DNA of 64,000 nt. Origin: Candidatus Kaiserbacteria bacterium (GTDB lineage Bacteria > Patescibacteriota > Minisyncoccia > Phycocordibacterales > UBA2100). The DNA lies in contig JACPLC010000005.1 of the NCBI GenBank assembly GCA_016186695.1, forward strand, positions 64,852-128,851, given 5' to 3'. The notes under the pieces are model-generated. The model ran no database searches. It had not been told where the DNA came from and saw only the letters and a list, made by a program, of their open reading frames with translations. Position 1 is the stretch's first letter. Every line of letters starts with the position of its first letter. The position numbers and the translations under genes are program-made. Of this stretch, positions 26,601 to 64,000 are shown piece by piece.

Positions 26601-26630
26601 AACGAGTATGCATTATACTCGTTTTTTCAC

Positions 26631-27179: not shown

Positions 27180-27195
27180 ACCTGAAAAACCCACC

Positions 27196-27232
27196 AAATA
27201 AAACAAAAAAGGTCCCTATGGGACCTACTTCT
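27196..27232 (-). terminator. Intrinsic terminator between purQ and the M23 gene, on the minus strand.
   Basis: Minus-strand GGTCCC-ATA-GGGACC followed by TTTTTTGTTTTATTT. Confidence 0.55.
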
Positions 27233-27299
27233 GACTACCTGTGGGGTCAGCACCCTACCACTCTATGCAAGTGATGTCAATGCTTGGAAAAGTCGCCCG

Positions 27300-48236: not shown

Positions 48237-48251
48237 ATTGTTGCCCCTCCG

Positions 48252-48461: not shown

Positions 48462-49723
48462 GGTAGTGGTAGCTGTACGCGCGTGCCCCAGTGCCCTTCG
48501 GTATAGCCGCACGCGCGGAAGATGCGTACGCCCGCTCGCACGAGAAACGTCGGGCGAAGACGCATACTCTGCTTCAGCACGTTGAACGAGTGAAAAAAGT
48601 ACGAACCGACGAGCGCGACCGTCATGAGATAGCTGTAGAGAAACTCCGGCACGAGCAAAAGCCGTATGAGCCAATCCCACGCATCCTTCTCTTTATAGAA
48701 TCGCATCAGCCAGAGCTGGAACGTGTAGGTGATGCCGAGTTGAAGGAGCGAGAGCGTAATCACGATGTCGGCCACATACGGCGGCACGTCGCCCTCACCC
48801 CGCAGAAAAAGCAGAATTCCTATCATGAGGAGCATCGAGACGAAAAGCGTATGCCCGAGAATATCCTGAAAAACGGACGAGAGGCTTCGCGCGCCCGCGA
48901 CGACGGTAACTCCGCCGTACGACCATCGCGTGCGCTGGCGCCAGAGGCGCGAGAGACCTTCTGGCACCACTGTCCACGCGGGCGCATTTACCGCGGATTT
49001 TACGCTCCAGCCCTGCGCTTTAAGACGCGCGGTCACCTCGTAATCCTCGATCAAGTGGCTCTCGGAGAATCCTCCGAGCTCACGGAGCGCACAGGTACGG
49101 AAGGCAGTGAGCATCCCGTGCATCACCAAGGGCCCGCGGAAAAATCCTTCGTCGGCCATGCGAATCGCATTGAAGCCGAGGTACTCGAGCCCTTGCAGGC
49201 GGGTAAGCAGATTTTTGTTTTTGTTGAAGACACGGCTTTGCGAGCACACCGCGCCAAGTTCCGGTGAGCTCATGAGTTCTGTCACGAGATTCCTCACCGT
49301 GTTTTCGGCGATCACGACGTCGTCGTCGAGCGTGAGAACGACGTCGGGATACCTGCGCCCCTCGGCGAAAATGCGCGCGAGTGCGTGGTTGAGTGCTCCT
49401 GCTTTGAGCTTGTTCTCGGGCGTGCGTAAGAGGGTGACGCGCTTTGAGATAGTCGCGATGCGTTTGAAGATTGCCTCGCTCCCCTCCTCTCGAGGAGTGC
49501 AATCGTCGACTACGTATACGAGAAGGTTTGGGCTCGAGCGGAGGAGTGCCTGAATGAGCCGCACGGTGAGTGCTCGCGGTTTGTAGGTGGGAACGATCGC
49601 GGCGATGGTCGCATTTCCGAAATCGAACGGCACCCGCTCATGATGAGCGGGCAGAATGAAATGTCCGAGCGTTATTCTCGGAGGTTTTGGGGTGTGAACA
49701 CCCTTTACGGAAGATGCTTCCAT
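48458..49723 (-). CDS. Processive family-2 glycosyltransferase (PgaC/IcaA/cellulose-synthase-like).
   Basis: DDC and DDD (DxD-type) motifs, the QxxRW motif (WRQRTRW), and about 5 C-terminal TM. Confidence 0.75.
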   Translation of the reverse strand: MEASSVKGVHTPKPPRITLGHFILPAHHERVPFDFGNATIAAIVPTYKPRALTVRLIQALLRSSPNLLVYVVDDCTPREEGSEAIFKRIATISKRVTLLRTPENKLKAGALNHALARIFAEGRRYPDVVLTLDDDVVIAENTVRNLVTELMSSPELGAVCSQSRVFNKNKNLLTRLQGLEYLGFNAIRMADEGFFRGPLVMHGMLTAFRTCALRELGGFSESHLIEDYEVTARLKAQGWSVKSAVNAPAWTVVPEGLSRLWRQRTRWSYGGVTVVAGARSLSSVFQDILGHTLFVSMLLMIGILLFLRGEGDVPPYVADIVITLSLLQLGITYTFQLWLMRFYKEKDAWDWLIRLLLVPEFLYSYLMTVALVGSYFFHSFNVLKQSMRLRPTFLVRAGVRIFRACGYTEGHWGTRVQLPLP

Positions 49724-49883
49724 ACAATGCGCCGATTTCCTCCCGCGCGCGCATCGAACGTGCGTTCCAATAAGGATATTGCAAAACAATATCGGGACAA
49801 CTATACAGCCCTACGGAAGTGTGTCTCAAGCGGCCTGAAATGCTGATGAATCTCCGACATTCCGACATATCGAGCAGAGTTAT

Positions 49884-51743: not shown

Positions 51744-51758
51744 CTGCCCGAGCAACGA

Positions 51759-53153
51759 TTACAGGGTGTCTGCCTGAAGAACTGCCTCCGAATGCTTGCC
51801 CGAAGGGTCGGTGTGTCCTGCACCGAGTGCTTCTCCTGCTGCGACGAGTGCGTCGCGAACGTCGCTCCAGAGCGCTCCGGGGTTGTTTGCTATGTAGAGC
51901 GCGGCGGCGCCGGCGGCATGCGGGCTCGCCATCGAAGTGCCGCTTATGCTTTTATATCCGCTCTTCAACCATGTCGAATAGATAGAGACACCGGGAGCGC
52001 CGATGTCGACGGGCGTTCCCCAGTTGCTGAAGGAAGCGAACGTGTCGTCGGCTCCATAGGCTGTAGCAGCGCCTCCGCCTCCCGACAAACCATTTGAATC
52101 CGCGAGCGCTGAGACAGTAATGACAGCATCGTCGTAGGCAGCAGGCACGAAGCCCGCGGCGTTTGCACCGGAATTCCCCGCTGCAACGACGATCGTCACG
52201 CCCGCGTCGCGCGCGCGGCAGATTGCCTTGTGCAGTGCATCGTTGTTGGAGTTGCCGCAATTGTTGTCGGAAACACCGCCGCCGCCTAAGCTAAGGTTTG
52301 CGACCGTGATGGGCCCGCCGTTTTTGGGCGCCTTGCTCGTCACGAAATCAATGCCGCAGATAACGCTCGACCACGACCCGCTGCCTGCATTATTGAGTAC
52401 GCGGACAGCCCACAATTTCGCCGATGGAGCGACGCCCACGACGCCGACGCCGTTATCGAGGGCCGCGATCGTGCCCGCCACGTGCGTGCCATGACCGTTT
52501 CCGTCGTTGTAGCTGGAGCCGGTCGAGCAGTTCTTGCCGCCGACGATGTTTGTTTTGAGATCGGGATGGCTCAGCTGTATCCCCGTGTCGATGACTGCGA
52601 CGTTGACTCCCGCTCCCTTATTGCTCAAGAATTCTGCATCTATGCGATTGATGCCTGTCGGCAGCGTTTGCAGCGAGGCCTTAACAGCTTCCGTGGTCGG
52701 CGATTCATCAGAGGGTGGAGGCGACGGAGGCGGTGCGGGAGGAGGAGGCTTGCGACGGTGCGATTCTGCACCTACATCGTCGCGAGCACCACGCACGCGG
52801 ACGGACTCCGCAATAGATACGATCCTGTCCTCGCTCACGAATGCGACGCGCGGATCGTTCGCGACCACTGCAAGGTCACTTTCTGAAAAACGCGCCGCAA
52901 AACCGGTGAGCGCGCTTCGATACGAGCCGAGCCGCTCGCCGCCTGCGCGTGCGATGATCTCCTGTTCCGCGGAATCTGCATCAACAGAGTCTTGCAAGAC
53001 GACGATGTACTGCCCCTCGATGCGAGCCTCGCGCACTGCCCTTTCGTCCCGTTCGCGCACATCTTCACCGAAGATGAGCTGAGGGATGATCAATAATGAA
53101 AAAATAACAAGCAGTATAGCGCTCAAAAAGCCACCCTGACTCATCGCTTTCAT
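51759..53153 (-). CDS. Secreted subtilisin-like serine protease (S8) with an I9 propeptide and a Pro-rich linker.
   Basis: Catalytic D (VAVIDTG), H (HGTHVAG) and S (GTSMASPHAAG) are present, along with PPPPAPPPSPPPS. The track start is 53189 (MSEIG...); a signal-peptide-proximal Met lies at 53153. Confidence 0.85.
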   Translation of the reverse strand: MKAMSQGGFLSAILLVIFSLLIIPQLIFGEDVRERDERAVREARIEGQYIVVLQDSVDADSAEQEIIARAGGERLGSYRSALTGFAARFSESDLAVVANDPRVAFVSEDRIVSIAESVRVRGARDDVGAESHRRKPPPPAPPPSPPPSDESPTTEAVKASLQTLPTGINRIDAEFLSNKGAGVNVAVIDTGIQLSHPDLKTNIVGGKNCSTGSSYNDGNGHGTHVAGTIAALDNGVGVVGVAPSAKLWAVRVLNNAGSGSWSSVICGIDFVTSKAPKNGGPITVANLSLGGGGVSDNNCGNSNNDALHKAICRARDAGVTIVVAAGNSGANAAGFVPAAYDDAVITVSALADSNGLSGGGGAATAYGADDTFASFSNWGTPVDIGAPGVSIYSTWLKSGYKSISGTSMASPHAAGAAALYIANNPGALWSDVRDALVAAGEALGAGHTDPSGKHSEAVLQADTL

Positions 53154-53404
53154 GGCATAAAATGTATCACGATTCCCGATCTCCGACAAGATGCCAAAAA
53201 TCAGGGTTTATGAAGTTTATGCACACCTCACGCTGCCTTCACGCTCCCACACCTACAGTGCATGATAGGATTTTTTGTACAAGCATAGGCCGAGGTCTGG
53301 GAAACCAGCGGTCAGTACAGCGTTGCTGTTTCGATGCCTGAAACCTAAGGTGCCCGCACATGAGCTGATGCGTTTGTTTATCCGTTTATTAATTTTATTC
53401 TTGT

Positions 53405-54100
53405 ATGGAAACGGCAAGAAATGTGTCCGTAGTGGTGCTCGCTTTGGCGGTTTTTAGCCTCCTCGCGGCATCGATTGCGTTTGCAGACATTAATAGCAGT
53501 TCATTCACGGTGACCGTTGAGAATTCAGGTACGATCACCAACACCGCTTCGTCAACGGCCGAAACGGGAGACAACACCGCAACGGGTAGCACGGGCGGCG
53601 CCGGAGGAGGCGGTGGCTCGGTAACCGCAGGCGCGGGAGACTTTAACAACGGAGGAGCGACCGCCGGCAATGGCGGCAATGGTGGAAACGCGGATGACGG
53701 CGGAGATGTCACGACCGGTGCCGCCACATCGGCTGCAGAATCCACAAACACGCTCAACGACACCGAGATCGATATCGATGTCGCGTCGACAACGGTCGGC
53801 AATATCAACAGCACAGCTATCACTGCCACCTCTACCTCGACTGGTGCGGTAACAAATGATACCCGTTCGAGAGCTCGCACCGGCGGCAACAGCGCGACGG
53901 GAAGCACAGGCGGCGCGGGCAGCTCGGGCGGAGCAGTAACCTCCACAAGCGGCAGCAACAACAACGGCGGAGCCATCGCTGGCAGCGGTGGAAGCGGTGG
54001 CACAACTGGCTTCGGCGGGACGATCAACACGGGACCGAGCAACAGCACGGCCTCCAGCACCAACGTGATGAATAGGCTTCGGATTAGAATCTCACTCTAA
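53405..54100 (+). CDS. Secreted Gly/Asn/Thr-rich protein with two tandem modules. The internal module ends in an acidic strand (TEIDIDV); the C-terminal module ends basic (...NVMNRLRIRISL).
   Basis: Signal peptide METARNVSVVVLALAVFSLLAASIAFA. Modules contain TG.N.ATGSTGGAGG...NNGGA.AG.GG.GG. Confidence 0.65.
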   Translation: METARNVSVVVLALAVFSLLAASIAFADINSSSFTVTVENSGTITNTASSTAETGDNTATGSTGGAGGGGGSVTAGAGDFNNGGATAGNGGNGGNADDGGDVTTGAATSAAESTNTLNDTEIDIDVASTTVGNINSTAITATSTSTGAVTNDTRSRARTGGNSATGSTGGAGSSGGAVTSTSGSNNNGGAIAGSGGSGGTTGFGGTINTGPSNSTASSTNVMNRLRIRISL

Positions 54101-54117
54101 GTCCTGCCCTTTTCTGC

Positions 54118-54148
54118 AAAACCTTCCTCCAAAGTGGAGGAAGGTTTT
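54118..54148. terminator. Bidirectional intrinsic terminator.
   Basis: Perfect 13-bp stem AAAACCTTCCTCC-AAAGT-GGAGGAAGGTTTT. Confidence 0.65.
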
Positions 54149-54157
54149 GTGTATGCT

Positions 54158-55258
54158 TCAAGAAAAGCTGATCGGGAGAGGCTCCGGTCTTCGCAAGAAC
54201 AGGTAGAGATACATGAAGCCGAGAAGTGCCGAAGTAAAGGAGAATACGAGGAGTCCCAGAGCATCCGCCCCGCCGGCTCCTGCGTTTGGAACTCCCGGCT
54301 CGCCTTGCGGTCCTCCCATAAAATCCGGTATAGGGGTGACCGCGCCGGCAACTTGGCCGGAGGGCGCTCCACCGCTCGAACCTCCACTCGAGCCGCCCGA
54401 ACTGCTTCCACCCGAACTGCCACCACTCGGCCCTCCTCCACTCGAGCCGCCCGATGGCCCTCCGCCGGTAGATCCGCCGCTCGGCCCACCGCCAGACGGC
54501 CCGCCTCCGCTATCGCCTCCCTGCCCGCCGGGACCCTCATCGTCATTAATAATGGTGCAGGTTTTAATGTCGCCCGCGGTGAGCGTAACGCGCCCCGAGG
54601 AATCGCAATCGCCGCTAAATTCCGGTACGTACTTCTGCGTTGTAGTTCCGACAGTCACACTCGTCGTTGCTTCCGAAACAATATACGTACCCGCAAGAAA
54701 TGTCCTCTGTACACCGGATTGGACGGTCGTCGAGCCGACGCGAAGCGTGAAGTCGGTCGTCGTTGCGCTCCCCTTGTCGTCGTTGATGACGATTTTAATG
54801 AGCGTGAGTTTGGGCGAGCCGGGCGGAGGCGGGCCATTCGGGCACGCCGGTACGTCGAATTGCGGTATCGGCTCGCCCGCGCTATTGAGAAGCGGAAAAA
54901 CAATGCAGTATTTTATTTGAGAGCCGAGGTCCGCTCCGGGCGTGGAAGGAGCGGCTGCAGTAGAGGGAGCGGAGGGAGAAGAAGGAGAATCGGGGGTTGC
55001 GGGGTCCCGCGTTGCTCCGATATCGGGAAACTGCACCGTCGGAGAATTTGGAGCCTCCGGCTTTGCAGGTATCGTCGGAAGGGCCGGAATCGTCATCGCG
55101 GGCAAAACGCGGGCGCTCTCTCTCGTTTCGTCACGAGATGCCCGCTCCGGCGAACGGTCGGTGTCAGAGTATGCAAACGTCGCGAGCAGCCAGAAAAACT
55201 GCGTGAGAACGAAAAGACTTATGAGGAGTAGGTTACGAAATGTGGTCGTGGTCGCCAT
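54158..55258 (-). CDS. Secreted protein with a Pro-rich region, a Gly/Ser linker (GGPSGGGPSGGSTGG...) and a C-terminal hydrophobic anchor followed by RRPE.
   Basis: Signal peptide MATTTTFRNLLLISLFVLTQFFWLLATFAYS. C-terminus ALGLLVFSFTSALLGFMYLYLFLRRPEPLPISFS. Confidence 0.55.
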   Translation of the reverse strand: MATTTTFRNLLLISLFVLTQFFWLLATFAYSDTDRSPERASRDETRESARVLPAMTIPALPTIPAKPEAPNSPTVQFPDIGATRDPATPDSPSSPSAPSTAAAPSTPGADLGSQIKYCIVFPLLNSAGEPIPQFDVPACPNGPPPPGSPKLTLIKIVINDDKGSATTTDFTLRVGSTTVQSGVQRTFLAGTYIVSEATTSVTVGTTTQKYVPEFSGDCDSSGRVTLTAGDIKTCTIINDDEGPGGQGGDSGGGPSGGGPSGGSTGGGPSGGSSGGGPSGGSSGGSSSGGSSGGSSGGAPSGQVAGAVTPIPDFMGGPQGEPGVPNAGAGGADALGLLVFSFTSALLGFMYLYLFLRRPEPLPISFS

Positions 55259-55494
55259 GCGCACGCCCCACCCCATAGTTTCCCGATACGAAGCAGCGCA
55301 GAAACATTGTAGATGGCCAAAATTAAGGACTCATGAACGAAAAACCTGATAATAGGGGGAAAGTCGGTAGGTAACCCTGTGCACAACCGGGGTACAGCTA
55401 TGTGCATAACCGGAAATCTCCAACAAATCAAACAAAAATCGCGACAGTGTGTTTCCGAGGAATCTTCCGCGAGCCTGTATCCCAATCAAAGCGA

Positions 55495-55579
55495 GGGCGC
55501 GAATATTTTTATCGCCGAGGACCTGTTCGAAACCGCCTACCGGCGGTGAGCCCCGCAGGCGATAAAAATATTCGCGCCC
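55495..55579. repeat. Perfect 22-bp inverted repeat with a 41-nt spacer (long hairpin) in the intergenic region.
   Basis: GGGCGCGAATATTTTTATCGCC ... GGCGATAAAAATATTCGCGCCC. The spacer itself contains CCGCC-TAC-CGGCGG. Confidence 0.6.
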
Positions 55580-55658
55580 GAGCGCCCCCCTACCTACCCT
55601 TCTTCGCCAAGGCTACAAAGGGTTCCCCTTCTTTTCAAACTCGGCGCAAGCTACGCAA

Positions 55659-56105
55659 TCATTTGGCGAAGGAGAAGAAGAATACAAAACTGAAGATACG
55701 CGCGAGCGAAGCCCTGATCTGCTGGAAGGCACGTGTAAGCCGCGAAGGAGACGAGGACGCAGATACCTCGGCAGAACCCTCGGCGCTCAGCGATTCCGTG
55801 TTTTCTGTGTTGACGCGTACCTCGAGACGGCGGATGCCTTCAAGTAGAGTGTCGGTCGAGGTCGCCTGCACGACGCCGTCTTCCGAAGTCCGTACATCGA
55901 CACGAACGCGCGTGTTTGAACCTTCAGTGCGAATGAAACTCCTGACATCGGCATCGGCGCTTGAGGTGCCGGACGCGCTTGCTTCGCCCGAAACCGTCAC
56001 ACCGCCTGTCTCGCTGATGCTCACGTTCTCCACGGTGAGCGCATCCGCGCCACGCACTGTTAGTACGAACGCAAGAAGCACCGAAATGAGCAAGATGTTC
56101 TTCAT
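55659..56105 (-). CDS. Small secreted protein.
   Basis: Signal peptide MKNILLISVLLAFVLTVRG. Acidic, Thr/Ser-rich, with a hydrophobic C-terminus. Confidence 0.45.
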   Translation of the reverse strand: MKNILLISVLLAFVLTVRGADALTVENVSISETGGVTVSGEASASGTSSADADVRSFIRTEGSNTRVRVDVRTSEDGVVQATSTDTLLEGIRRLEVRVNTENTESLSAEGSAEVSASSSPSRLTRAFQQIRASLARIFSFVFFFSFAK

Positions 56106-56110
56106 AGTCG

Positions 56111-57322
56111 CTAGCAGTTGAGGACGGTGTTGGTGCCACCGCCAGCATTGCAGGTGTCGAAGTCGGGACCTCCATCGATGAAATCGTTTCCTCCAAGAGT
56201 AGTCACCGTATCTTCTCCGGCACCTGCGAAAACTTTGTTTTTGCCCCCGCCTGCCGAAATCGTGTCGTCACCATTACCCGTCTTTATCTGGTCATCTCCG
56301 TCTCCCGCGGTTACTATCTTGTTGCCATTGCCAGCGAGAACCGTGTTCTTCCCTGCACCTGCAGAAATCACTGACACTCCAGCGCCTATTTTTACGGTGT
56401 CGTTTCCATCTCCCAGACAAATGATGAAGTCACCATTTCCAGCGATTACTTTGTCATTGCCCCCCTTCCCCACAAACATCGTGAACGACGAAAGTGTCAC
56501 CGTGTCCCGGCCGGGCCCGCCATTCATCAACGTATAGCCTGCTGGAGCGACCGTCGGCGTGTCACATGCGTTTGCGGGAACTGATGGAATGTCGTTTGTT
56601 GCAGGCTTCACAGCGACGACTGGCTCATCCGCTTCTCTTGCAGAGGAGATATTGATCGTCATAGTCTCTGTTCCTGCGGTCGAGGCTGCGGACTTGAATG
56701 AGCCCGCGGTCCAGCCCATATCGCTTGTGGTGGGAACCATGAACTCCGTCTCGCCCGCACCGTATGACAACCATGTCGCGGTCTCCCACTTGGGGAGTGA
56801 AAGGAGAAGGGTGTTGCCCACGGTCGTCGTGACAGACGTAGAGTTTGAGGACTGACTACCCTCAAAAGTCACATTGGAAACGTCTACGGAGCTTGATTGA
56901 GCAGCGTCTTGAAGGGTGAAGACCGCGTAGTCGGCGAAAGTGGCACTTACAAAGTTGATCTCAAAGGGACCTGTCGATGGATTTGCGAGATAACCGACGT
57001 AGTAGCAGGCTCTGTTGAATGTTCCCGGGATACCAGAAATGGTGAGCGATGTTCCGTTCTGTGTAGCTGATATGGGCGCGGTGGGACAATCATTTTTTGA
57101 GATGAGAGCGATGAGAAGTTTGTTCGTGCCCCCAGAGGGTACCGTGTATTCGAAAGAGTGCGAGGTGGTATCGATGGCCTTCTGCATCGGCACAGGAAGT
57201 GAGTCGAGGATCGAAGGCGTTGTTGAGGCAGCATGAACAGCTGTAAAGAGTGTGCTCAGCGCGAACGCCATCGCGAAAATCGCAATCACTATTGTCGTGG
57301 ATATTGCTTCGTATCTAGTCAT
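56111..57322 (-). CDS. Secreted or membrane-anchored protein with C-terminal RTX-like (hemolysin-type Ca-binding, GGxGxDxUx) repeats.
   Basis: GNGDDTISAGGGKNKVFAGAGEDTVTTLGGNDFIDGG and GKGGNDKVIAGNGD. N-terminal TM/signal. Confidence 0.6.
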   Translation of the reverse strand: MTRYEAISTTIVIAIFAMAFALSTLFTAVHAASTTPSILDSLPVPMQKAIDTTSHSFEYTVPSGGTNKLLIALISKNDCPTAPISATQNGTSLTISGIPGTFNRACYYVGYLANPSTGPFEINFVSATFADYAVFTLQDAAQSSSVDVSNVTFEGSQSSNSTSVTTTVGNTLLLSLPKWETATWLSYGAGETEFMVPTTSDMGWTAGSFKSAASTAGTETMTINISSAREADEPVVAVKPATNDIPSVPANACDTPTVAPAGYTLMNGGPGRDTVTLSSFTMFVGKGGNDKVIAGNGDFIICLGDGNDTVKIGAGVSVISAGAGKNTVLAGNGNKIVTAGDGDDQIKTGNGDDTISAGGGKNKVFAGAGEDTVTTLGGNDFIDGGPDFDTCNAGGGTNTVLNC

Positions 57323-57327
57323 GTCCC

Positions 57328-57393
57328 TCTCTGAGGCCTCGATTCTTTCAAGACCTCATGAGAAGGAGGAACGGACTCGTTCCTCTTCTCGTT
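57328..57393 (-). promoter_or_regulatory. Conserved intergenic/leader unit, copy 1: a hairpin plus the CCTTCTCATGAGGTCTTGA and TCGAGGCCTCAGAGA boxes immediately upstream of the RTX-gene ATG.
   Basis: Minus strand GAGGAACG-AGTC-CGTTCCTC followed by the conserved boxes. A homologous unit lies at 63274..63398. Confidence 0.5.
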
Positions 57394-57397
57394 ACAG

Positions 57398-58867
57398 CTA
57401 ACGAAACCGTATCCGCGTGAAGTTGAGTGAATTCAGCGTCCTCCCGACACTGCTCGAGTTGCCCGTTAGAACGGCACCGCTTGTGCTTCCCGATCCGCCT
57501 GCGCCGCCGCTACCAGCCGTAGCCCCGCCGTTGTTTTCGTCACCGAGAGAGCCGCCAATGTCGCCACCGGTGCCGCCGGTACCGCCCGCGCTTCCGAGCC
57601 CGATGTTCTGACCCGTGTGAGAACGAGCCGAGGTCGTGTTGTTAATCATGCCACCATTGCAAACTTTCACCCGTATGCTCCCAGTGAGTGGAGGCGGACA
57701 GACTTCTAATTCAAACGCGCCTATATCACACCCCGGGCCTTGAGGCCGCGTAATACCCCGCTGGTCTGTAGTAACGGTGCAGGAAAGAAGTGGCACGGCA
57801 TCGATGGCAGGGCTTCCCGCAAGAAGTGCGTGCGTTTCTGTCTCGCCGCCATTGTTCTGGAGCGGACCAAGCAGCGGATCCGTGCTATTGAGGTCCCCTG
57901 TACCCCCGAGGGCACACGAGGCGTCGCTTGCTATGTTGTGCCCGAGGGAAGTAATGCCTCCAGCACAGTCGTCGGAGGGAGTTGCTGCTGTGTTTGAACT
58001 GACGATGGAGTTCTCCAGCGTCATGGTGCCCCCGAAGTTCCAGATGCCGCCGCCATTGTCGGTAGCGGTGTTATCGGTGATCGTCGCGTGCGTGATAAGC
58101 ACGGTACCGAACCTGTTGAAGATACCGCCGCCGTTCAGCGCGGTGTTTCCGCTAATAGTGCTGTTAGTAATGGTTATCGTCGGGTCGGCGCCGTAGATGC
58201 CGCCCCCGCGCCCTATCGTGCTGTTGCCGCTCACCGTGCTTCGCGTCAGTGTGAGCGTGCCCGAGCTGAAAATGCCTCCGCCGCCGCCGCTGGTGTTGGA
58301 ACCGAGCAGAATATTGTCGCTGACGGTCGTATCAGTCAGAGTGAGAGTGCCCGTATTCAAAATACCGCCACCGAAATTTTCGCCTGTGTTATCGGTAACG
58401 ATACTCTTAGTCAGCGTTAGAGTGCCTGCATTCAGGACGCCGCCGGCGCCTGCGCCCGCCTCGGGATCGCCGTTTTGGATCGTGACTGCGTCGATCAGGA
58501 CTGTCACCCCAGAGAAAACAGTGAGCACCCTGTCGATGCCGCCTCCGTCTATGATAGTGGTCGCTGCCCCTGCGCCACTCACGGTTAGGTCGTCTGTGAT
58601 GTCCAAGTCGCCGGTCGCATTCAGATCTTCTCCTGTGCCGACGATGCTAAGTGTGTACGTGCCAGCCGGTAGTGTGACGACGTCGGCGCCAGCGAGCGCA
58701 TTCGCTGCCCCTATTGCTTCCCGCAGAGAGCAGTCGGCATCACACACACCGTCATTAGTGTCCGCAGTTTTGGTGACGGTGAATGTGGCGGCGAGCGCCG
58801 GCGTGGCGAGCGTTAGCGGCACGAGCGCTACCCCAACAACGATAATCCTAGCAAGCAGAGTTTTCAT
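57398..58867 (-). CDS. Secreted CSLREA-domain (choice-of-anchor Q) right-handed beta-helix protein, ending in the shared Gly-rich module and ...LNFTRIRFR.
   Basis: CDADCSLREAIGAAN, then roughly 10 beta-helix rungs (GGGI.N.GTLTLT.STVSGN), then TSARSHTGQN...ENNGGATAGSGGAGG...NFTRIRFR. Confidence 0.65.
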   Translation of the reverse strand: MKTLLARIIVVGVALVPLTLATPALAATFTVTKTADTNDGVCDADCSLREAIGAANALAGADVVTLPAGTYTLSIVGTGEDLNATGDLDITDDLTVSGAGAATTIIDGGGIDRVLTVFSGVTVLIDAVTIQNGDPEAGAGAGGVLNAGTLTLTKSIVTDNTGENFGGGILNTGTLTLTDTTVSDNILLGSNTSGGGGGIFSSGTLTLTRSTVSGNSTIGRGGGIYGADPTITITNSTISGNTALNGGGIFNRFGTVLITHATITDNTATDNGGGIWNFGGTMTLENSIVSSNTAATPSDDCAGGITSLGHNIASDASCALGGTGDLNSTDPLLGPLQNNGGETETHALLAGSPAIDAVPLLSCTVTTDQRGITRPQGPGCDIGAFELEVCPPPLTGSIRVKVCNGGMINNTTSARSHTGQNIGLGSAGGTGGTGGDIGGSLGDENNGGATAGSGGAGGSGSTSGAVLTGNSSSVGRTLNSLNFTRIRFR

Positions 58868-58898
58868 AAAGCGTAAGTGTTTTAGTCATAGCGTGTGG

Positions 58899-59570
58899 CT
58901 ATCGGCCGATGCGAACCACGGTGTGGTTCGCTACGTTCGTAGAGAACGAACTCGAAGAGGTCGTGCCGGAGGAAATGCTCCCCTGACTCACGGCCGAGCC
59001 GCCGTTCCCGCCGTTTCCGGCCGATGCGCCTCCGTTGTTGTCGGCGCCGCCGGTGCCGGAAACATCCCCGCCGTTTCCGCCAACGTATCCGTTTCCGCCG
59101 TTCCCTGCGCTTGCGCCTCCGTTGTTGCTAGTGCCGCCACCGAGCGATGCGACGTTGCCTCCGTCGCCAGCATTCCGTCCCGAGCCTCCGCTCCCCGCCG
59201 ATGAGCCGCCGTTGTTGCTTGAGCCGCCGCCGGAGCTGCTGACATCGCCTCCGTTGCCCGCATCATATCCATTGCCGCCATTCCCCGCCGATGAGCCGCC
59301 GTTGTTGCTCGAGCCGCCCGAAGCAGAGCTCGATCCGCCATTTCCGCCGACCTGCCCGCTTCCGCCACTGCCCGCAGAACTTCCTCCATTGTTCCCTGAA
59401 CCGAACGCGGAGAACAAGCTACTGCCCGAGGTGCGCTCAAGCCGTTCGCTCTGCACACGGATCATCGCCGCCTCGGCGAAGTACGGCAGTGTTATGAAAA
59501 CAACCGCAGAGACGAGCACCCCGATCGCAAGTCCGAGGACGGCAATTTCTTTCTTTTCCAGAAATTTCAT
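58899..59570 (-). CDS. Secreted Gly/Ser/Asn repeat protein (about 27-aa repeats SNNGGSSAGSGGSG.NGGNGG...), ending ...NHTVVRIGR.
   Basis: N-terminal TM, then about 6 repeats, then the C-terminal motif. Confidence 0.6.
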   Translation of the reverse strand: MKFLEKKEIAVLGLAIGVLVSAVVFITLPYFAEAAMIRVQSERLERTSGSSLFSAFGSGNNGGSSAGSGGSGQVGGNGGSSSASGGSSNNGGSSAGNGGNGYDAGNGGDVSSSGGGSSNNGGSSAGSGGSGRNAGDGGNVASLGGGTSNNGGASAGNGGNGYVGGNGGDVSGTGGADNNGGASAGNGGNGGSAVSQGSISSGTTSSSSFSTNVANHTVVRIGR

Positions 59571-59600
59571 ACGTGACGTTACTAATTAATAATTACTGGC

Positions 59601-62600
59601 CTAATTTCCAAAAAACCAGCCGCCGATAGTGCTTACGTTGAAACGGCCGGCGCCACGCGAGTTCGTACTGTCTTCCTTCTTTGGCTCCTTCTTGGCCGTC
59701 GGTTTAGGTTTCGCTGCAGCCGCAGGCTTCTTGGGAGCCGGAGTTGACACCGACTCGGGAGCTACAGCGACAGGCGCCTGCGCCGCAGCGACAGGTTCCG
59801 AAACAGGAGCTGCGCCGCCGCAGTAGACCGCATTGATCTTTTTCAGCGTCGAAGCGTACACACTGCCGGTGCCGCGTGTGAGTCCGAAGGGGGCGAGAAC
59901 CTCGCTCGTGTGTTTTTCCTGGAATGTGCTGACTGCTGCTGCCGTCAGCGCACCATAGAAGCCGGATATCGGAAGATTCGAGCCGACATCGAAGTTCAGA
60001 AATGCTTGCAGCTTTTTGACCTCAAGCGTATTCGTCGAACCACGGCGCAGGTATGTGGATAGAAGCGGGCTACATGCCGCTGCTGCTGCGGGAGGCGGCG
60101 TCGCTGCCGTTGCCGTTGAAGCCCCCAAGACTTTTCCTTCGGCAAAGGTCACGTCTCCCCACCCTTCTGCAGGCGGCATTTTGCTTACCATCGGCGCAAA
60201 TGTCGTTTCGTTGCGCTGACCCGTGATGCGTCCGACGTTACGATAGGTGCCGGGCTTGGTTTTGAGGGCATCGAATTCCACCGTGTAGGTAAGGGTTACC
60301 TGATCTCCGGCTTCAAGAGCGCCAAGTTTCCAGCTGCGCGTGCTAAGCGGCCTGTTCCAGGGGTCATAGAGAATATCGGAAAGAGTCGTGTGGTATGCAG
60401 GTCGGGCCCACTTGTCGTTCGTCACGACCACTTTGTAGTCGATAAGGATAGAAGAAGCTGTGGTGCTCGCCGAGAGTGTTGCACTCTTCGAAACTGTTAT
60501 TTTGGGATCGACATTGGGGTCTGCTGTGGAGATCCCCGGTGTCGATGTCGCAAAAACGAAGACAACAGGAACCGGGCCGCCGCTCGAAGAGCCGGCGGTT
60601 GTCGGAAGGCCTCCGCCTCCACCACCTCCGCCGCCCCCACCACCACCGCTCGAAGACCCTGAGCTTGTCGAAGGGCTACCACCGCCCCCGCCTCCGCCTC
60701 CGCCCCCGCCCGAGGAACTGGAACCAGAGGAATCCCCTCCGCCGCCGCCTCCACCAGAAGATCCTGAGGAAGATGAATCCCCTCCGCCGCCGCCACCGCC
60801 CGAGGAATTGGAATCCGAGGAACCGCCTCCTCCGCCGCTTCCACCAGAGGATGAATCGGTTGATCCTCCGGGAGAGCCCGAACCAGAGTCGCCACTGCCC
60901 GAGGAGCCTCCCTCACTTCCGGTATTTGAACTTGTGCCGATGACATTGACCGTCACGGTGCTCGTGTTGTCACTCTCATTTTGATCATGCTCCGCGCCCA
61001 CGACCCTCACGTTCATTGAAACGGGCACGGTTGCTCCTTGAGAGAGACCCAAAAGACGCACGGGGCCTTTTGCGGAGTATGCACGCGTCTCCCCTGGCAA
61101 AAGGGTCCCGAGATTCCATTTGATGCCTGTCTCCGTTTCAAGAGCACCGCTCGACACTTGCGAAAGAGAGAGCTGGCTCCTGTCGTACGTTGCGTGCAGG
61201 GCGACGTTGCTTGCGGCTTTGTCACCGTTATTCCGAACGGTGAACTGATACTGCACTTCTGAATTTGGCTGAGAGGTCGTCGGACTCACGCTCGCGGAGA
61301 CCGAGAGATCCGGATTACTGCCTCCGAAGTTAATGTTGCCGTTCCAGTCTCCGTAGATGTTGAAAATACCGAGGACCCAGTTTCGGTTCACGATGTTGGT
61401 GTTCACCATGTTGATGACGTTGGCCGTCGCGAACGCATCACCCGAGCGCACCGAAGCGATACCGTCCTCCACCGCACCTGTGTTATTACCCGTTTCCGCG
61501 ATGACCTCCACATCGGTCTGCACCTTTGCAAGGTTCGTCGATGAAGCGAGGAACGACGACGAGTTCAGGATGCCCGTCGAGCCCGAGGTGCGCTGTCTCG
61601 GGCCGGAAACGATCTCAAACCCGTAGTCCGTCTCGTGCGCCGTAAGTTCGCGCGGCAGGCCGACGACCGAACCGTTCCAATTACCCCACACGCGAAAGAT
61701 GAAATGCACAGAAGCTCCGCCCACCCTTGTTTGGTTCGCCGAGGTATAGCTCTTCGAAGAAGATCGCGCGAGGCCGGTTACCACCTCCCCGTGTCCGAGC
61801 GCAGTCGAGCTCGCCGTGTTGCCGCCGGTCACCGCGCGTGCGGTCGTCGTCCCGAAGAAGTCCTCGTCATTCGTATTGTCGACGACGAAGGAACTCGAGT
61901 TCATGGTCGGCAGTGAAGAGGTCCCGTTCAAAAGCGCGCCGAAGAATTTCTCGTCGGGAAGAACGATGTCTTCCTGCAGGTCGCCGAAGCTGCTCGCCGA
62001 AACGAGGAGGTAGCTCGAGTTGATGAAGTTGGTGTTCACGAGGTTCAAGACGTTGGCAGAGGCATACGCGCTCCCGGTATCGATCACGGCGTCCCCGGCA
62101 TCAGTCGAGGTCGCCGAGTTCGCGCCTGTCGTTGCACGTACCAATACTTTGTTCGTTACGGTTGCGGTGTTGTTGTTGAGAATATCCAAATCGGCGCTGT
62201 TGAGACACGTGAGAATCGTACAGCCGAGCTCTGTGGGGCTATTCCCCGGACCCTGCTCAGAGAAGTATGAAAGATCAAAATCCCGCAGATCCAGTCGATC
62301 TCCCGTCGAAGAATTGAGGAAGAGCACAAGTCCGTCGGAGTTGAAAAGGTTGGTATTCACGACGTTTGTGACCTCGGCAGTGGCTATCGCCTTGCCCGTG
62401 GCGATCAGCGCTGTGCCGCCGGTACCACCCGTAGCTTGGTTTTCCCCCGTAAACGCTCGGGCTTGTCCATCGGTCGTAAGCTCGGCATCGTTCGTGGCGG
62501 AAGAGGTGATGTGAGAGCTGTTTGTTTTCCCCGGCGCGTCTACGTTCGTGCGTGTGATGTTCAAGACGTTGTGAACCGTCGTCGTTGCCGTCGCATCTCC

Positions 62601-63266
62601 TGTCAATACCGTCCCGCCGATCTTCGCACCCGTGCCGTCACCGGAGACTGCCGACCTGAAGACAGGCTCGTCGGGTGCTGCCGCCTCGGTCGTTGTTGCA
62701 CTGACGTCGATGATCGGCTTATCGGGATTTGGCGGCTTCGCGGTCCCCACATTGGTAAAGTCGGTATTGTCCGTGCCACTCTCCTCCGGCGCTACATCCC
62801 CCGAACTCGTCGAAGAAGTGGACGAAGCAGAAGGATCTCCCGCGTCTGTTGCGGTCGTACCCGGCCCGCTTGCCGCGAACAAGCTCGGCTCCGGCGCACT
62901 CGAACCCGACTCTACTTGAGAGGATGACTCTGATGGAGGAGGTGGCGCTGGCGACTCTTCCGGAGCCGGCTCTGCGGGCGTTCCCGTCTCGGTAGAGGTT
63001 TCGCTCGTCCCCGCGGTCCGGTCGCGCTCCGCCCGTGGGCTCGTGGGATCTGTTGATGTTGCTTCCTGCGCAAAGGCGCTCGGTATCGGCGTGATGCCGA
63101 CGACAAGCGCCACCATCACCGTAAGTGATAGTGTGCGCATGATGGATATTGACCCCGTTAGAGAACCAGTCCCGTAAAAGAGATTCAGCCGTCCCGAATA
63201 CGCCGTTCGATACGGGAAGGCACCCAAGCGCCGTTTCTCTAACGGGGTTGACATCTTCTTATCCAT
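59601..63266 (-). CDS. Giant secreted cell-wall-associated protein with N-terminal AR.xTG.N...VNTN..N repeats, a jelly-roll-like region, two DUF11-like repeat domains, a poly-Gly linker and a C-terminal peptidoglycan-binding (PG_binding_1) domain.
   Basis: PG-binding LRRGSTNTLEVKKLQAFLNFDVGSNLPISGFYGALTAAAVSTFQ. DUF11-like PDLSVSASVSPTT...FTVRNNGDKAASNV. The start is ambiguous: GTG 63299 in the track, ATG 63266 in the conserved RBS context, or ATG 63140 directly before the hydrophobic signal MRTLSLTVMVALVVG. Confidence 0.6.
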   Translation of the reverse strand: MDKKMSTPLEKRRLGAFPYRTAYSGRLNLFYGTGSLTGSISIMRTLSLTVMVALVVGITPIPSAFAQEATSTDPTSPRAERDRTAGTSETSTETGTPAEPAPEESPAPPPPSESSSQVESGSSAPEPSLFAASGPGTTATDAGDPSASSTSSTSSGDVAPEESGTDNTDFTNVGTAKPPNPDKPIIDVSATTTEAAAPDEPVFRSAVSGDGTGAKIGGTVLTGDATATTTVHNVLNITRTNVDAPGKTNSSHITSSATNDAELTTDGQARAFTGENQATGGTGGTALIATGKAIATAEVTNVVNTNLFNSDGLVLFLNSSTGDRLDLRDFDLSYFSEQGPGNSPTELGCTILTCLNSADLDILNNNTATVTNKVLVRATTGANSATSTDAGDAVIDTGSAYASANVLNLVNTNFINSSYLLVSASSFGDLQEDIVLPDEKFFGALLNGTSSLPTMNSSSFVVDNTNDEDFFGTTTARAVTGGNTASSTALGHGEVVTGLARSSSKSYTSANQTRVGGASVHFIFRVWGNWNGSVVGLPRELTAHETDYGFEIVSGPRQRTSGSTGILNSSSFLASSTNLAKVQTDVEVIAETGNNTGAVEDGIASVRSGDAFATANVINMVNTNIVNRNWVLGIFNIYGDWNGNINFGGSNPDLSVSASVSPTTSQPNSEVQYQFTVRNNGDKAASNVALHATYDRSQLSLSQVSSGALETETGIKWNLGTLLPGETRAYSAKGPVRLLGLSQGATVPVSMNVRVVGAEHDQNESDNTSTVTVNVIGTSSNTGSEGGSSGSGDSGSGSPGGSTDSSSGGSGGGGGSSDSNSSGGGGGGGDSSSSGSSGGGGGGGDSSGSSSSGGGGGGGGGGGSPSTSSGSSSGGGGGGGGGGGGGLPTTAGSSSGGPVPVVFVFATSTPGISTADPNVDPKITVSKSATLSASTTASSILIDYKVVVTNDKWARPAYHTTLSDILYDPWNRPLSTRSWKLGALEAGDQVTLTYTVEFDALKTKPGTYRNVGRITGQRNETTFAPMVSKMPPAEGWGDVTFAEGKVLGASTATAATPPPAAAAACSPLLSTYLRRGSTNTLEVKKLQAFLNFDVGSNLPISGFYGALTAAAVSTFQEKHTSEVLAPFGLTRGTGSVYASTLKKINAVYCGGAAPVSEPVAAAQAPVAVAPESVSTPAPKKPAAAAKPKPTAKKEPKKEDSTNSRGAGRFNVSTIGGWFFGN

Positions 63267-63273
63267 GTTTTCT

Positions 63274-63398
63274 TCTCTGAGGCCTCGAATTTTTACCACT
63301 CATATCCATGGTGGTCAAGACCTCATGAGAAGGAGGGACCGTCGGCGGAATCCGATGCATCGAGTCGAACTGCGTTCGGTCCCTTTCTTCTCTCGTTC
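63274..63398 (-). promoter_or_regulatory. Conserved intergenic/leader unit, copy 2 (it carries insertions relative to copy 1).
   Basis: The boxes GGTCCCTCCTTCTCATGAGGTCTTGA and TCGAGGCCTCAGAGA are shared with 57328..57393. Confidence 0.45.
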
Positions 63399-63430
63399 AG
63401 ATGTTTCCAAGTCAGAACGACAGCTCACGA

Positions 63431-64000
63431 CTACAAGCGAACACGAATAATGGTCGTGTTCAGGAGGTTGATCGTGCCGGAAGTCGAGCTTGCAGCGCCC
63501 GTGTGGATTTCTCCACCGAGGCCGCCAGCGCCGCCTGAGCCACCAGTACCAGCCGATGCACCACCGTTGTTTTCGCTGCCACCTGCGCCGTCAATGTCGC
63601 CACCGACGCCGCCAGTGCCACCGATGCTTCCGTCCGCGAGGTTCTGGCCAGAGCGACCGCGAGCCTGCGTTACGTTGTTGATGGCGTTGTCGTCATCGTC
63701 GTTGTCAGTCGTGACATCAAGAGTGACGCTGTTTATGTCGCCACAGTCACAAGTGAATTCGACGTCGACATCCGTGCCGTTGAGGCTGTTCTCCGTGCCG
63801 GCGTCAGCCGAGGCGTCGCCCGTTTGCACGAAGCCGCCTGCGCCGCCGTTGCCGCCGTTTCCACCGTTTCCGGCAGAAGCGCCGCCGTTGTTCTCACTGC
63901 CACCGCCACCGTTGACGTTGCCGCCGTTGCCGCCGTTGCCGCCAATGCTTCCGAGCGCAACGTTCTCCCCTGTGTGAGAGTCAGCCTGCGTCAGGTTATT
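63431..64000 (-). CDS. Partial CDS (the N-terminus lies beyond the right window edge): secreted Gly/Asn-rich protein with two tandem C-terminal modules. The internal one ends acidic (TDVDVEF); the terminal one ends ...LLNTTIIRVRL.
   Basis: The frame stays open from 63829 to 64000 by hand translation (...TQADSHTGENVALGSIGGNGGNGGNVNGGGGSENNGGASAGNGGNGG...). Confidence 0.6.
   Translation of the reverse strand, partial: NNLTQADSHTGENVALGSIGGNGGNGGNVNGGGGSENNGGASAGNGGNGGNGGAGGFVQTGDASADAGTENSLNGTDVDVEFTCDCGDINSVTLDVTTDNDDDDNAINNVTQARGRSGQNLADGSIGGTGGVGGDIDGAGGSENNGGASAGTGGSGGAGGLGGEIHTGAASSTSGTINLLNTTIIRVRL

Follow-up and report, generated by a model that had tools for sequence, protein, structure and literature searches.

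The two look-alike gaps between surface-protein genes in the window (the whole stretch of DNA analysed, 64 kb) are copies of a conserved, predicted RNA hairpin element from Kaiserbacteria-like bacteria of the candidate phyla radiation. On the gene (minus) strand, which encodes all genes at both gaps, the element follows a glycine-rich surface-protein gene and precedes the next one for a surface protein. That it is a cis-acting RNA structure, absent from Rfam and tied to a conserved surface-protein locus, is well supported by sequence comparison; what we infer is its transcription, the positions of start sites, a function for the Shine-Dalgarno-like stretches and all of the regulatory outcomes discussed below. 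From 5' to 3', the element has five parts:

R1, the first and 5'-most part: a purine box, GAGAAG or GAAGG.
Hairpin 1, the second part: a hairpin of free sequence.
Y, the third part: a pyrimidine box, CCUUCUC, anti-Shine-Dalgarno-like.
Stem 2, the fourth part: UGAGGUCUUGA / UCGAGGCCUCA, enclosing a loop of 4 to ~70 nt.
R2, the fifth part: a purine box, GAGAGGG, the Shine-Dalgarno-like stretch of the next gene.

A sequence-only reading of the window had taken the two boxes shared by the gaps for independent motifs. Box 1 (CCTTCTCATGAGGTCTTGA) is instead complementary to box 2 (TCGAGGCCTCAGAGA), and jointly they give an 18-bp stem, CCUUCUC-A-UGAGGUCUUGA / UCGAGGCCUCA-GAGAGGG, whose 3' strand is the Shine-Dalgarno-like stretch immediately before the ATG. 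A GC hairpin (hairpin 1) adjoins this stem at a distance of 0-1 nt, and the purine box GAGAAG lies 5' of it; the position of hairpin 1 is fixed and its sequence is different in every copy. Each box occurs exactly twice in the window, box 1 at 57348-57366 and 63315-63333 (0.01 expected at ≤3 mismatches) and box 2 at 57328-57342 and 63274-63288 (0.17 expected at ≤2 mismatches). This is far above chance and bears out the homology of the two gaps and the hairpins and boxes described for them, as well as the purine-rich run followed by an ATG (57322-57320 in copy A and 63266-63264 in copy B).

Copy A and its flanking genes comprise the following features:

57398..58867, minus strand: upstream gene, an ORF for a 489-aa secreted protein, with its stop TAG at 57400-57398.
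57385..57390, minus strand: R1 box GAGAAG, an alternative CCUUCUC partner that lengthens hairpin 1.
57367..57384, minus strand: hairpin 1, AGGAACG-AGUC-CGUUCCU, in the MFE and centroid fold.
57348..57366, minus strand: box 1, the 5' strand of stem 2, with Y (CCUUCUC) at 57366-57360, a bulged A at 57359 and UGAGGUCUUGA at 57358-57348.
57343..57347, minus strand: loop AAGAA, 5 nt, too small for a promoter.
57325..57342, minus strand: box 2, the 3' strand of stem 2, with UCGAGGCCUCA at 57342-57332 and the R2/Shine-Dalgarno-like GAGAGGG at 57331-57325.
56111..57322, minus strand: downstream gene, whose 403-aa product has a membrane/signal segment at the N-terminus as well as RTX (HemolysinCabind) repeats, Pfam PF00353.

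The upstream protein has a CSLREA N-terminus, a choice-of-anchor Q domain and a C-terminal Gly/Asn 'module' (NCBIfam TIGR04214, NF041518), and the C-terminus of the RTX protein is similar to that of SpaA_2/RTX proteins in canonical loci. R1 pairs with 57366-57361 when the upstream part is folded alone, a promoter scan made no call in the loop, and R2 ends 2 nt ahead of the ATG. Copy B has the same order of parts:

63431..64000, minus strand: upstream gene for a ~235-aa secreted protein with two modules, truncated by the end of the window to its 3' part (189 aa), with its stop TAG at 63433-63431.
63387..63392, minus strand: R1 box GAGAAG.
63334..63384, minus strand: hairpin 1 in the predicted fold, AGGGACCG...CGGUCCCU, with an inner hairpin inside.
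63315..63333, minus strand: box 1, the 5' strand of stem 2, with Y at 63333-63327, a bulged A at 63326 and UGAGGUCUUGA at 63325-63315.
63289..63314, minus strand: loop, 26 nt, with an extended -10-like TGgTAAAAA at 63298-63290.
63271..63288, minus strand: box 2, the 3' strand of stem 2, with UCGAGGCCUCA at 63288-63278 and the R2/Shine-Dalgarno-like GAGAAGA at 63277-63271.
59601..63266, minus strand: downstream gene for a 1221-aa giant surface protein with DUF11/CARDB and a weak PG_binding_1.

Here R2 ends 4 nt ahead of the ATG, and this start of the giant gene is backed by the conserved N-termini of its orthologues (M-x-K-x-x-S). The module gene upstream has 95 homologues, mostly of 228-240 aa and with Kaiserbacteria/Parcubacteria source names.

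Alignment of A and B by program showed similarity beyond the short boxes, including a common AACGAGA(G)AAGA stretch 5' of the hairpin and ~250 nt of the 3' coding ends of both upstream genes (~72% identity; families D4/D5). Within the boxes, identity is 96% across 25 nt and 90% across 21 nt; relative to A, the hairpin of copy B is 37 nt larger and there is a 21-nt insertion between the boxes. The gaps had been read as parts of two paralogous two-gene cassettes, which is not borne out: only the upstream proteins have a 78-aa C-terminal module in common (58% identity), and the downstream ones are unrelated (RTX, 403 aa, vs DUF11/PG-binding, 1221 aa; BLASTP E=3.9). Nor is the similarity that of a recent local duplication. 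Judged by synteny and collinearity, the element is old and kept at two syntenic positions in Kaiserbacteria-type loci, and copy B is chimeric: collinearity is with a post-module copy in the 5' half (hairpin 1 matching the hairpin of the post-module copy in locus L005) and with a pre-giant copy in the 3' half. The copies therefore recombine, and the units travelling together are the module 3' end with the 5' half and, separately, the 3' half with the downstream start.

The search for copies beyond the window yielded ~25 more in Kaiserbacteria/Parcubacteria contigs. All are on the gene strand, and they occupy two syntenic sites, one following the ~235-aa 'module' gene and the other preceding the giant gene. 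The similarity outside the boxes and these copies in other genomes both go against the outcomes that had been named as refuting a shared unit. The unit had been described as a link between genes ending in the Gly/Asn-rich 'module' and the next secreted-protein gene, and this arrangement recurs in at least 15 other contigs. The stem was predicted in every copy folded. Across 23 distinct copies, 94.9% of the cells of the 18-bp stem were paired in an alignment (A3) that was fitted to the model, so that pair counts are biased towards structure; slid controls of the stem alignment gave 34-64%. Changes on both sides were found in 7 of the 18 pairs (2.3 ± 0.9 in shuffles, with 0 of 500 reaching the observed count), and RNAalifold independently recovered 16 of the 18. 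Folding Z-scores on the gene strand were -5.1 for A and -4.3 for B, compared to -2.7 on the opposite strand. A covariance model (model R1) scored the gene strand at 60.8 bits for A and 69.4 bits for B, the other strand at 24 bits, and the next-best site in the window at 10 bits.

In the distant copies (L015, L025, L023 and L027) the sequence is replaced and the architecture kept, with R1, Y and R2 changing together (GGAGG/CCUCC/GGAGG, GAGGG/CCCUC/GAGGG and CGAAG/CCUUCG/CGAGGG). R2 ends 2-6 nt ahead of the start codon in A, B, L003, L005, L006, L009, L013, L015, L017 and L019, and the N-termini that follow are conserved. In many post-module copies the next ATG is 25-60 nt past R2, which there is not a ribosome-binding site, and the stem is still kept. 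The identical 19-mer of box 1 was found in 11 contigs, between which the module proteins share only 55-80% identity. This conservation far exceeds the needs of a hairpin, is unexplained by the switch model below and hints at a sequence-specific partner.

A search of the whole window against Rfam 15 gave zero matches at the gathering score. At E≤10, both gaps had chance-level matches only (Fluoride, 11.4 bits; mir-485, 16.1 bits; LPR69, 14.5 bits), none covering both element boxes; that to mir-485 (63323-63396) is on the opposite strand and spans hairpin 1 and part of box 1. No description of the element was found in the literature searched. As the element is strand-specific, with compensatory changes and three G-U pairs, an RNA-level role is its best reading, and to this extent the suggestion that the leader is a terminator/antiterminator or an RNA-stability element stands.

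Two alternative folds are predicted. Pairing of Y with R2 gives the 18-bp stem, which buries the ribosome-binding site; pairing of Y with R1 gives a longer hairpin 1 and leaves the site free. A box equivalent to R1 is present in 23 of 24 copies, and R1 paired with Y in 23 of the 24 once the 3' strand was left out of the fold. In the models the alternatives are almost equal in energy, differing by -0.8 ± 2.1 kcal/mol over 23 copies in nearest-neighbour predictions only.

The 21 nt that are extra in the loop of copy B, which the sequence-only reading also missed, are associated with a promoter-like site, TTGACC-N17-TGgTAAAAA. The final bases of box 1 (TTGA) open the -35-like TTGACC (63318-63313), which straddles the boundary of the 5' arm and the loop, so only its last two bases are within the loop. 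The -35-like motif lies 17-18 nt upstream of the -10-like one, and the promoter scan called TTGACC-18-AAAAAT. The loops of B and its orthologues contain TTGACC-N17/18-TGgTAnAAA. Orthologous copies have the motif (T)GTGGTAGAA in their loops; this motif is also kept in the stemless pre-giant gap of L025, and is similar to TGATAnAnT boxes ahead of other genes in the window.

Given these features, we put at about even the chance that the element is an RNA switch or insulator between cistrons, hiding the ribosome-binding site of the downstream gene in transcripts that read through, by a logic like that of IS10 fold-back. It would be transcribed with the genes as a conserved strand-specific RNA and would keep the surface-protein gene that comes next uncoupled from the module gene, which is presumably abundant. 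Read-through transcripts from the module gene would contain both stem strands, and thus downstream translation is proposed to be throttled, or set by competition between R1 and R2. In copy B and the orthologous pre-giant copies, a putative extended -10 promoter inside the loop would give the giant gene a transcript of its own that begins within the 3' strand (in B, predicted near 63286-63280), lacks the 5' strand and is accessible to ribosomes. As the loop of copy A has no promoter, the RTX gene would rely on read-through RNA plus the switch, or on processing. A Shine-Dalgarno sequence is missing from most of the window's genes, so masking of the ribosome-binding site may matter less in this organism.

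Processing could account for some of the same features and could coexist with the switch, and we regard it as possible though unlikely. An RNase III-type cut in the 18-bp stem stacked on hairpin 1 would part the module mRNA from that of the downstream gene; the fragment upstream of the cut would re-pair Y with R1 and end in a long protective hairpin, the downstream fragment would start with a freed ribosome-binding site, and a high ratio of module to large protein would result (selective RNA processing and stabilisation). A processing or stabilisation site would give R1 a clear role, account for the balance of the two folds and for the post-module copies whose R2 is away from the ATG, and suit an element placed directly after what is probably the most-expressed gene of the locus. 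The stem is long and near-perfect, with one bulged base, and some copies are longer via pairing within the loop. However, RNase III takes about two turns of near-perfect double-stranded RNA, and 18 bp is at the low end of its substrates as judged against E. coli and T7 sites; a processing site also leaves the promoter-like motif of the loops unexplained.

It is improbable that the adjacent hairpins act on the polymerase, whether by stopping or pausing it after the module gene or by modifying it for read-through of the very long downstream genes, as with the put RNA of phage HK022 and the EAR RNA of the Bacillus eps operon. Two stable hairpins 0-1 nt apart, placed immediately before genes of 3.6-3.9 kb in a long cluster of surface-protein genes that all run in one direction, would suit such a role, and the strong sequence conservation of stem 2 fits recognition by the polymerase or a factor. 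Both hairpins are stable and G+C-rich, as in an intrinsic terminator, but neither is followed by a U-tract: the bases next to hairpin 1 on its 3' side are CCUUCUCAUGAGG, those next to stem 2 are ACAUGAC or AAACAUGG, and the gene-strand terminator scan called neither. A classical intrinsic terminator is therefore unsupported. Hairpin 1 has no conserved sequence or size, unlike put RNA, no Rfam family including EAR matched even at E≤10, and the three-way complementarity of R1, Y and R2 would be left without a role.

We give similarly little credence to an element that acts as DNA, in which box 1 would be a -35 hexamer and operator, box 2 a transcribed leader and their complementarity incidental, or in which the inverted repeat would be a recombination or mobile site (REP, MITE or attC-like) shuffling surface-protein cassettes. 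Box 1 does end in TTGAC, which in B and its orthologues is followed after 17-18 nt by a -10-like motif, there are palindromes in box 1 (CTCATGAG) and box 2 (GAGGCCTC), and the chimeric copy B indicates that recombination at the element does happen; yet the short-loop copies without a -10 keep both boxes, a box spacing of 4 to ~70 nt is ill-suited to a dimeric DNA-binding protein, the G-U pairs and one-strand-only scores indicate RNA, and ordinary homologous recombination between repeats suffices for the chimera. The copies are few, syntenic and all on the gene strand (2 in 64 kb, one exact 19-mer of box 1 in a 613-kb contig, none in viral contigs), unlike REP or MITE repeats. A Y1 transposase gene (Y1_Tnp) lies near the element in one locus (L015) but is not flanked by copies. 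Neither box has the RYYYAAC...GTTRRRY core site of integron attC, and no integrase domain was found among the called genes of the loci. Finally, a functionless, neutral leftover of segmental duplication is hardly credible, since, although the flanking 3' coding ends are homologous too, the boxes are 90-100% identical vs ~72% in the adjacent coding DNA, and conservation in many genomes with compensatory changes contradicts it.

Gene regulation in candidate-phyla-radiation bacteria is, to our knowledge, almost unexplored; these bacteria are not yet growable alone, and their surface proteins are thought to mediate host attachment. The architecture of the element leads to testable predictions, i.e., a two-state switch over the ribosome-binding site and a promoter in the loop of some copies. 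It also marks joints of locus rearrangement and so helps in reading gene order and operon structure in these genomes, and, if its sequence conservation reflects a dedicated partner, it would point to a new regulator. More speculatively, and in our estimate improbably, the element could represent a new class of bistable riboregulator specific to Parcubacteria, in which the invariant CCUUCUCAUGAGGUCUUGA stem is recognised sequence-specifically by a partner acting in trans, which would flip the switch between R1:Y and Y:R2 and so set the ratio of a fibre or anchor 'module' protein to the giant surface proteins of these episymbiont-like cells, and which doubles as a recombination joint reshuffling surface-protein cassettes. 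Candidate partners of the CCUUCUCAUGAGGUCUUGA stem would be an RNA-binding protein, a nuclease, or the ribosome via anti-Shine-Dalgarno mimicry.

Compared to known systems, the element resembles processive antitermination RNAs (HK022 put, Bacillus EAR) as a compact two-hairpin RNA within or ahead of long surface or exopolysaccharide operons, but the Rfam search showed no sequence or model similarity, hairpin 1 is unconstrained, and the overlap with the ribosome-binding site has no counterpart there. With translational riboswitches and RNA thermometers it shares a three-strand logic of R1 (anti-sequester), Y (sequester) and R2 (Shine-Dalgarno) with states near-equal in energy. Platform-like alternative pairing is thus present, but there is no conserved unpaired pocket or junction for a ligand as in riboswitches: the conserved positions lie in helices, and the loops vary freely from 4 to ~70 nt without an invariant column. 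The stem (about -25 kcal/mol or more) is also much more stable than known thermometers. Intercistronic stoichiometry stem-loops (the pap, puf and mal REP elements, 'selective RNA processing and stabilisation' in the Clostridium cellulosome, T7 RNase III sites) are similar as stable hairpins right after a small, probably highly expressed structural-subunit gene in a one-directional cluster with large accessory or surface proteins. Those are generic in sequence, whereas the 19-nt strand of the element is conserved across genomes and overlaps the next ribosome-binding site, and processing here is hypothetical.

The remaining comparison is with 'fold-back inhibition' of transposase mRNA in IS10/Tn10, reportedly described by Davis, Simons and Kleckner in 1985. 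In IS10, an inverted repeat brackets the promoter of the transposase gene itself; transcripts from outside have both arms and bury the ribosome-binding site, and those from the internal promoter lack the 5' arm and are translatable. Copy B and the pre-giant copies share this geometry of inverted repeat, promoter and ribosome-binding site on paper: it is present by sequence in B, L002/L017, L003, L005, L006, L013 and L015, with a promoter that is only putative, and absent from A and the other short-loop copies. In contrast to IS10, the element lies outside insertion sequences and has no transposase gene; its location is syntenic and chromosomal, the genes downstream encode surface proteins, and many copies, including A, have no internal promoter. 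It is a conserved family with an extra hairpin and a third box, R1, which would make it bistable.

Every gene of the region is on the minus strand of the window, and two of the gaps between them, gap A (about 57328-57393) and gap B (about 63274-63398), each hold a copy (A or B) of a shared element. In the order of transcription, the features are as follows.

64000 (window end) to 63431, minus strand: 3' part of a 'module' gene, first in transcription order, then gap B
63266-59601, minus strand: gene for a 1221-aa DUF11/CARDB/PG-binding protein (the giant gene), after gap B
59570-58899, minus strand: 223-aa Gly/Asn-repeat gene, after the 1221-aa gene
58867-57398, minus strand: 489-aa gene (CSLREA, choice-of-anchor Q and module), then gap A
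57322-56111, minus strand: 403-aa RTX-repeat gene, after gap A

Tandem coding repeats were detected at 59027-59405 (units of about 90 nt, in the 223-aa gene) and 60577-60852 (45-nt and 66-nt Gly/Ser-rich units, within the giant gene). Elsewhere in the window, the product of 44313-46502 (-) is a 729-aa protein that combines bacterial collagen triple-helix repeats (at least 7 matched stretches) with a DUF7151 domain; its gene has a TATAAT box 3 nt 5' of the ATG. Also encoded in the window (22662-31132 (-), 9757-12261 (-)) are a pyruvate phosphate dikinase and two enzymes of purine synthesis, a large PurL-like FGAM synthase and an adenylosuccinate lyase; candidate-phyla-radiation genomes are usually credited with less biosynthetic capacity than this set.

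The 64 kb contain box 1 (CCTTCTCATGAGGTCTTGA) and box 2 (TCGAGGCCTCAGAGA) exactly two times each (chance expectations of 0.01 and 0.17, respectively, with mismatches allowed), where the sequence-only reading had placed them, and the hairpins, purine run and ATG that it described were all found in both gaps. Aligned by program, the similarity extends past the boxes to a GAGAAG stretch 5' of the hairpin in both gaps, and takes in some 250 nt at the coding ends of the upstream genes. As these coding ends are about 72% identical, the boxes are clearly better conserved than the adjacent coding DNA, and the shared unit noticed in the sequence-only reading is confirmed. No third copy was found in the 64-kb window, the next best covariance-model score being 10 bits.

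Box 1 is complementary to box 2, which the sequence-only reading had missed. Folded on the gene strand, every copy forms hairpin 1, whose sequence differs per copy, and a directly abutting 18-bp stem (stem 2), in which CCUUCUC-(bulged A)-UGAGGUCUUGA pairs with UCGAGGCCUCA-GAGAGGG. In A, in B and in B's orthologues, the start codon is 2-6 nt past the end of the 3' strand, and given this position the 3' strand contains a Shine-Dalgarno-like stretch (GAGAGGG, hereafter R2). Compared with shuffled sequence, the fold has z = -5.1 (A) and -4.3 (B) versus -2.7 for the opposite strand; under a covariance model of the stem, the gene strand reaches 61-69 bits and the opposite strand 24 bits, and the stem has three G-U pairs, which are A-C mismatches on the other strand. 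Because all three favour the gene strand, they point to an element acting as RNA rather than as double-stranded DNA, and the two sets of scores led us to reject an RNA from the opposite strand.

Covariation was assessed in 23 distinct copies. Standard pairs filled 94.9% of the pair cells and 7 of the 18 pairs changed on both sides, compared with 2.3 ± 0.9 when columns were shuffled (none of 500 shuffles reached the observed value), counts that come from an alignment fitted to the covariance model. Pairing fell to 34-64% when the partner strand was slid by 1-3 columns, and RNAalifold, using its own structure prediction, recovered 16 of the pairs, with compensatory changes in 7. The model missed distant copies in the gaps following the module gene on four contigs from other genomes or metagenomes (L015, L025, L023 and L027, the last encoding a module homologue named Nomurabacteria by one source). 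Their sequences differ (e.g., CCCUCUGGAGAGUCCUU ... AAGAGGGUUCUCCCGAGGG; CCUUCGGAUAAGCCAG ... CUGGUUUAUGCGAGGG), and all four retain the hairpin-plus-long-stem fold despite this; these predicted folds are independent support for the structure. We conclude, separately from any mechanism, that this is very probably a conserved structured RNA element.

A third strand, R1 (GAGAAG, GAAGG or AGAAGG), is a purine box immediately 5' of hairpin 1. With the 3' strand left out of the fold, as it would be during transcription, 23 of 24 copies pair the CCUUCUC of box 1 (Y) with R1, which lengthens hairpin 1. The three strands are altered jointly in three of the distant copies:

L015: R1 GGAGG, Y CCUCC, R2 GGAGG
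L025: R1 GAGGG, Y CCCUC, R2 GAGGG
L027: R1 CGAAG, Y CCUUCG, R2 CGAGGG

Refolding with R2 or R1 blocked in turn gave a difference between the states with the ribosome site free and masked of only -0.8 ± 2.1 kcal/mol over 23 copies (-1.2 kcal/mol in A and the same in B), and the element is, on paper, bistable. Occlusion of R1 by a ribosome at the upstream stop codon was dropped, as anything between 7 and about 40 nt separates the stop codon from R1.

An exact search for box 1 matched two MAG contigs labelled Candidatus Saccharibacteria and one Nitrospirota sequence (L001), the latter by chance, within a coding region and without box 2; in metagenomes it matched seven contigs, all with true copies. 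Contigs encoding module homologues were then fetched and searched with the covariance model, revealing further copies, many with changed boxes. Synteny is conserved across these loci. The usual order is a 235-aa module gene, the element, a small module gene and two small genes, a SpaA_2/RTX protein gene, in some cases a small gene, the element again and the gene for a giant protein of 1200-1290 aa, beyond which lie S8 peptidase, CAP protein and glycosyltransferase genes. As the element holds two positions in this order, its copies fall into two classes: post-module copies have loops that are short or idiosyncratic, with the next ATG often 25-60 nt off, and pre-giant copies have a loop of about 26 nt and an ATG 3-5 nt past R2. 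A 613-kb contig contained a single exact box 1, and the element is, judging from these searches, locus-specific and not a dispersed repeat. A MITE or REP was ruled out by copy number, fixed orientation and synteny, attC by the absence of core sites and of an integrase, a phage or mobile origin by 0 matches to the box 1 18-mer in viral contigs, and a hidden coding sequence by loops of 4 to about 70 nt with indels that are not all multiples of three.

Several loci have features of their own. Short AGCTTYnAG-type repeats (e.g., agcttctagcttcgagcttctagctgcgag) lie directly 3' of several post-module elements (L003 2622-2665; L013 10900-10960; L019 10863-10920). The copies at L005 393-475 and L010 915-1018 have in common a structured 45-70-nt loop insertion (GTAGTAGCGAGGTCGGAAACGGATTCGAC...GAGCTCACCGCAGG) and are followed by purine-rich TAGGGA/TAGAGAA repeats (about 60 nt after each). 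At one Kaiserbacteria locus (L015 8492-9190), a gene for a 232-aa Y1 transposase (PF01797, IS200/IS605 or RAYT type), without flanking element copies, is just upstream of the module gene. In one genome, a gene for an RRM_1 RNA-binding protein of 124 aa (L025/L026 6348-6722 (-)) lies some 3 kb upstream of the module locus; since this gene was absent from the other loci examined, a link to the element cannot be claimed.

The 21 extra bases of copy B are part of its loop and, together with the end of box 1, read TTGACC-N17-TGgTAAAAA. A promoter scan of an 8-kb region called only three promoter-like sites, and this one alone is on the gene strand. TTGAC(C) and (T)GTGGTAGAA are retained with the same spacing in the orthologous pre-giant copies, and TTGTGGTAAAAGA is still present in the pre-giant gap of L025, where the stem is lost. 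Similar TGATAnAnT boxes stand 6-9 nt 5' of the ATG of other window genes. A transcript from the copy B site would start within the 3' strand, without the 5' strand. In copy A, as in several post-module copies, the loop is 5 nt long and holds no promoter; such short-loop copies keep both boxes and their complementarity without a -10 box, and a 'terminator plus promoter' gap was rejected as a general account. Among 35 window starts examined, about 6 have a TGATAnAnT or TATAAT-type box 3-10 nt 5' of the ATG (1205, 12261 (-), 18469, 19060, 37730 and 46502 (-)), most have no Shine-Dalgarno sequence, and GGAGG-type sites occur at few genes (33718, 34516, 35115). With boxes so close to the ATG and most starts without a Shine-Dalgarno sequence, leaderless mRNAs look common in this organism.

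The sequence-only reading had taken A and B to mark two paralogous two-gene cassettes, probably duplicated as units, a picture that needs correction. The downstream genes are unrelated (E=3.9 by BLASTP), and the upstream genes have in common only the 78-aa C-terminal module (58% identity). Copy B is a chimera. One part, which runs from its stop-codon end through box 1 and includes the inner hairpin GAUGCAUCGGAUUCCGC, is collinear with the L005 post-module copy; the other, loop to start codon, is collinear with pre-giant copies, those of L005 and L003. In copy A, the 5' flank (TAG-CTGTAAC-GAGAAGAG) matches that found after another 'domain + module' fusion gene in L005. The halves thus travel separately, the 5' half with the module-ending gene and the 3' half with the downstream gene, and recombination inside the conserved stem has rearranged the window locus. 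Relative to the canonical order (compared in L011, L013, L015, L017 and L019), that locus (47199-64000 (-)) has the giant gene directly after the module gene, followed by the CSLREA::module fusion gene and a truncated RTX gene, and the rearrangement joints coincide with the two element copies.

The module (...SHTGxNxAxGSxGGxGG...SENNGGAxAGxGGxGG...LNTTIIRVRL*; 63431-64000, 57398-57650 and 58899-59570, all minus strand) had no match in PDB, Pfam or NCBIfam. The partial module protein has 95 homologues, mostly of 228-240 aa, and those with a named source bear Parcubacteria-group names, most commonly Candidatus Kaiserbacteria, which makes a Kaiserbacteria-like member of the candidate phyla radiation the most likely source of the window. 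By itself, the module is a secreted protein of about 235 aa with two repeats; in larger proteins it makes up the C-terminal end (following a choice-of-anchor Q domain in the window). Its presence there suggests a surface-anchoring or fibre-forming domain.

The best-supported reading, in which we have middling confidence, takes the element for an RNA insulator or switch between cistrons. RNA that reads through from the module gene would carry both stem strands, and access to the downstream ribosome-binding site would depend on which of R1 and R2 wins the competition for Y. Processing and stabilisation of the RNase III type is compatible with this and would give R1 a clear role; we rate it as rather unlikely. 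A terminator/antiterminator module is less probable still: there is no U-tract, which excludes a classical terminator, and Rfam gave no family match for the whole window and both gaps. Equally improbable is a DNA-level promoter/operator or recombination site, which fits poorly with a spacing that varies, with the presence of G-U pairs and with so few copies. We regard a neutral duplication remnant as hardly credible. Stem 2 is nearly invariant among genomes with flanking proteins only 55-80% identical, and hairpin 1 is free to vary. Such invariance is more than a generic hairpin requires, and it suggests a sequence-specific partner, or joint constraints from the -35 hexamer, start site and Shine-Dalgarno sequence.

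Our literature search found no description of the element or locus. Ribosome-binding-site sequestration, fold-back inhibition and intercistronic hairpins are known logic; new here are the three-part, bistable form, the variant with a promoter in its loop, and the lineage. If the element is an insulator or switch, the putative promoter in the copy B loop would let the downstream gene's own transcript escape masking, resembling IS10 fold-back inhibition, in which transcripts from the element's own promoter escape masking of the ribosome site.
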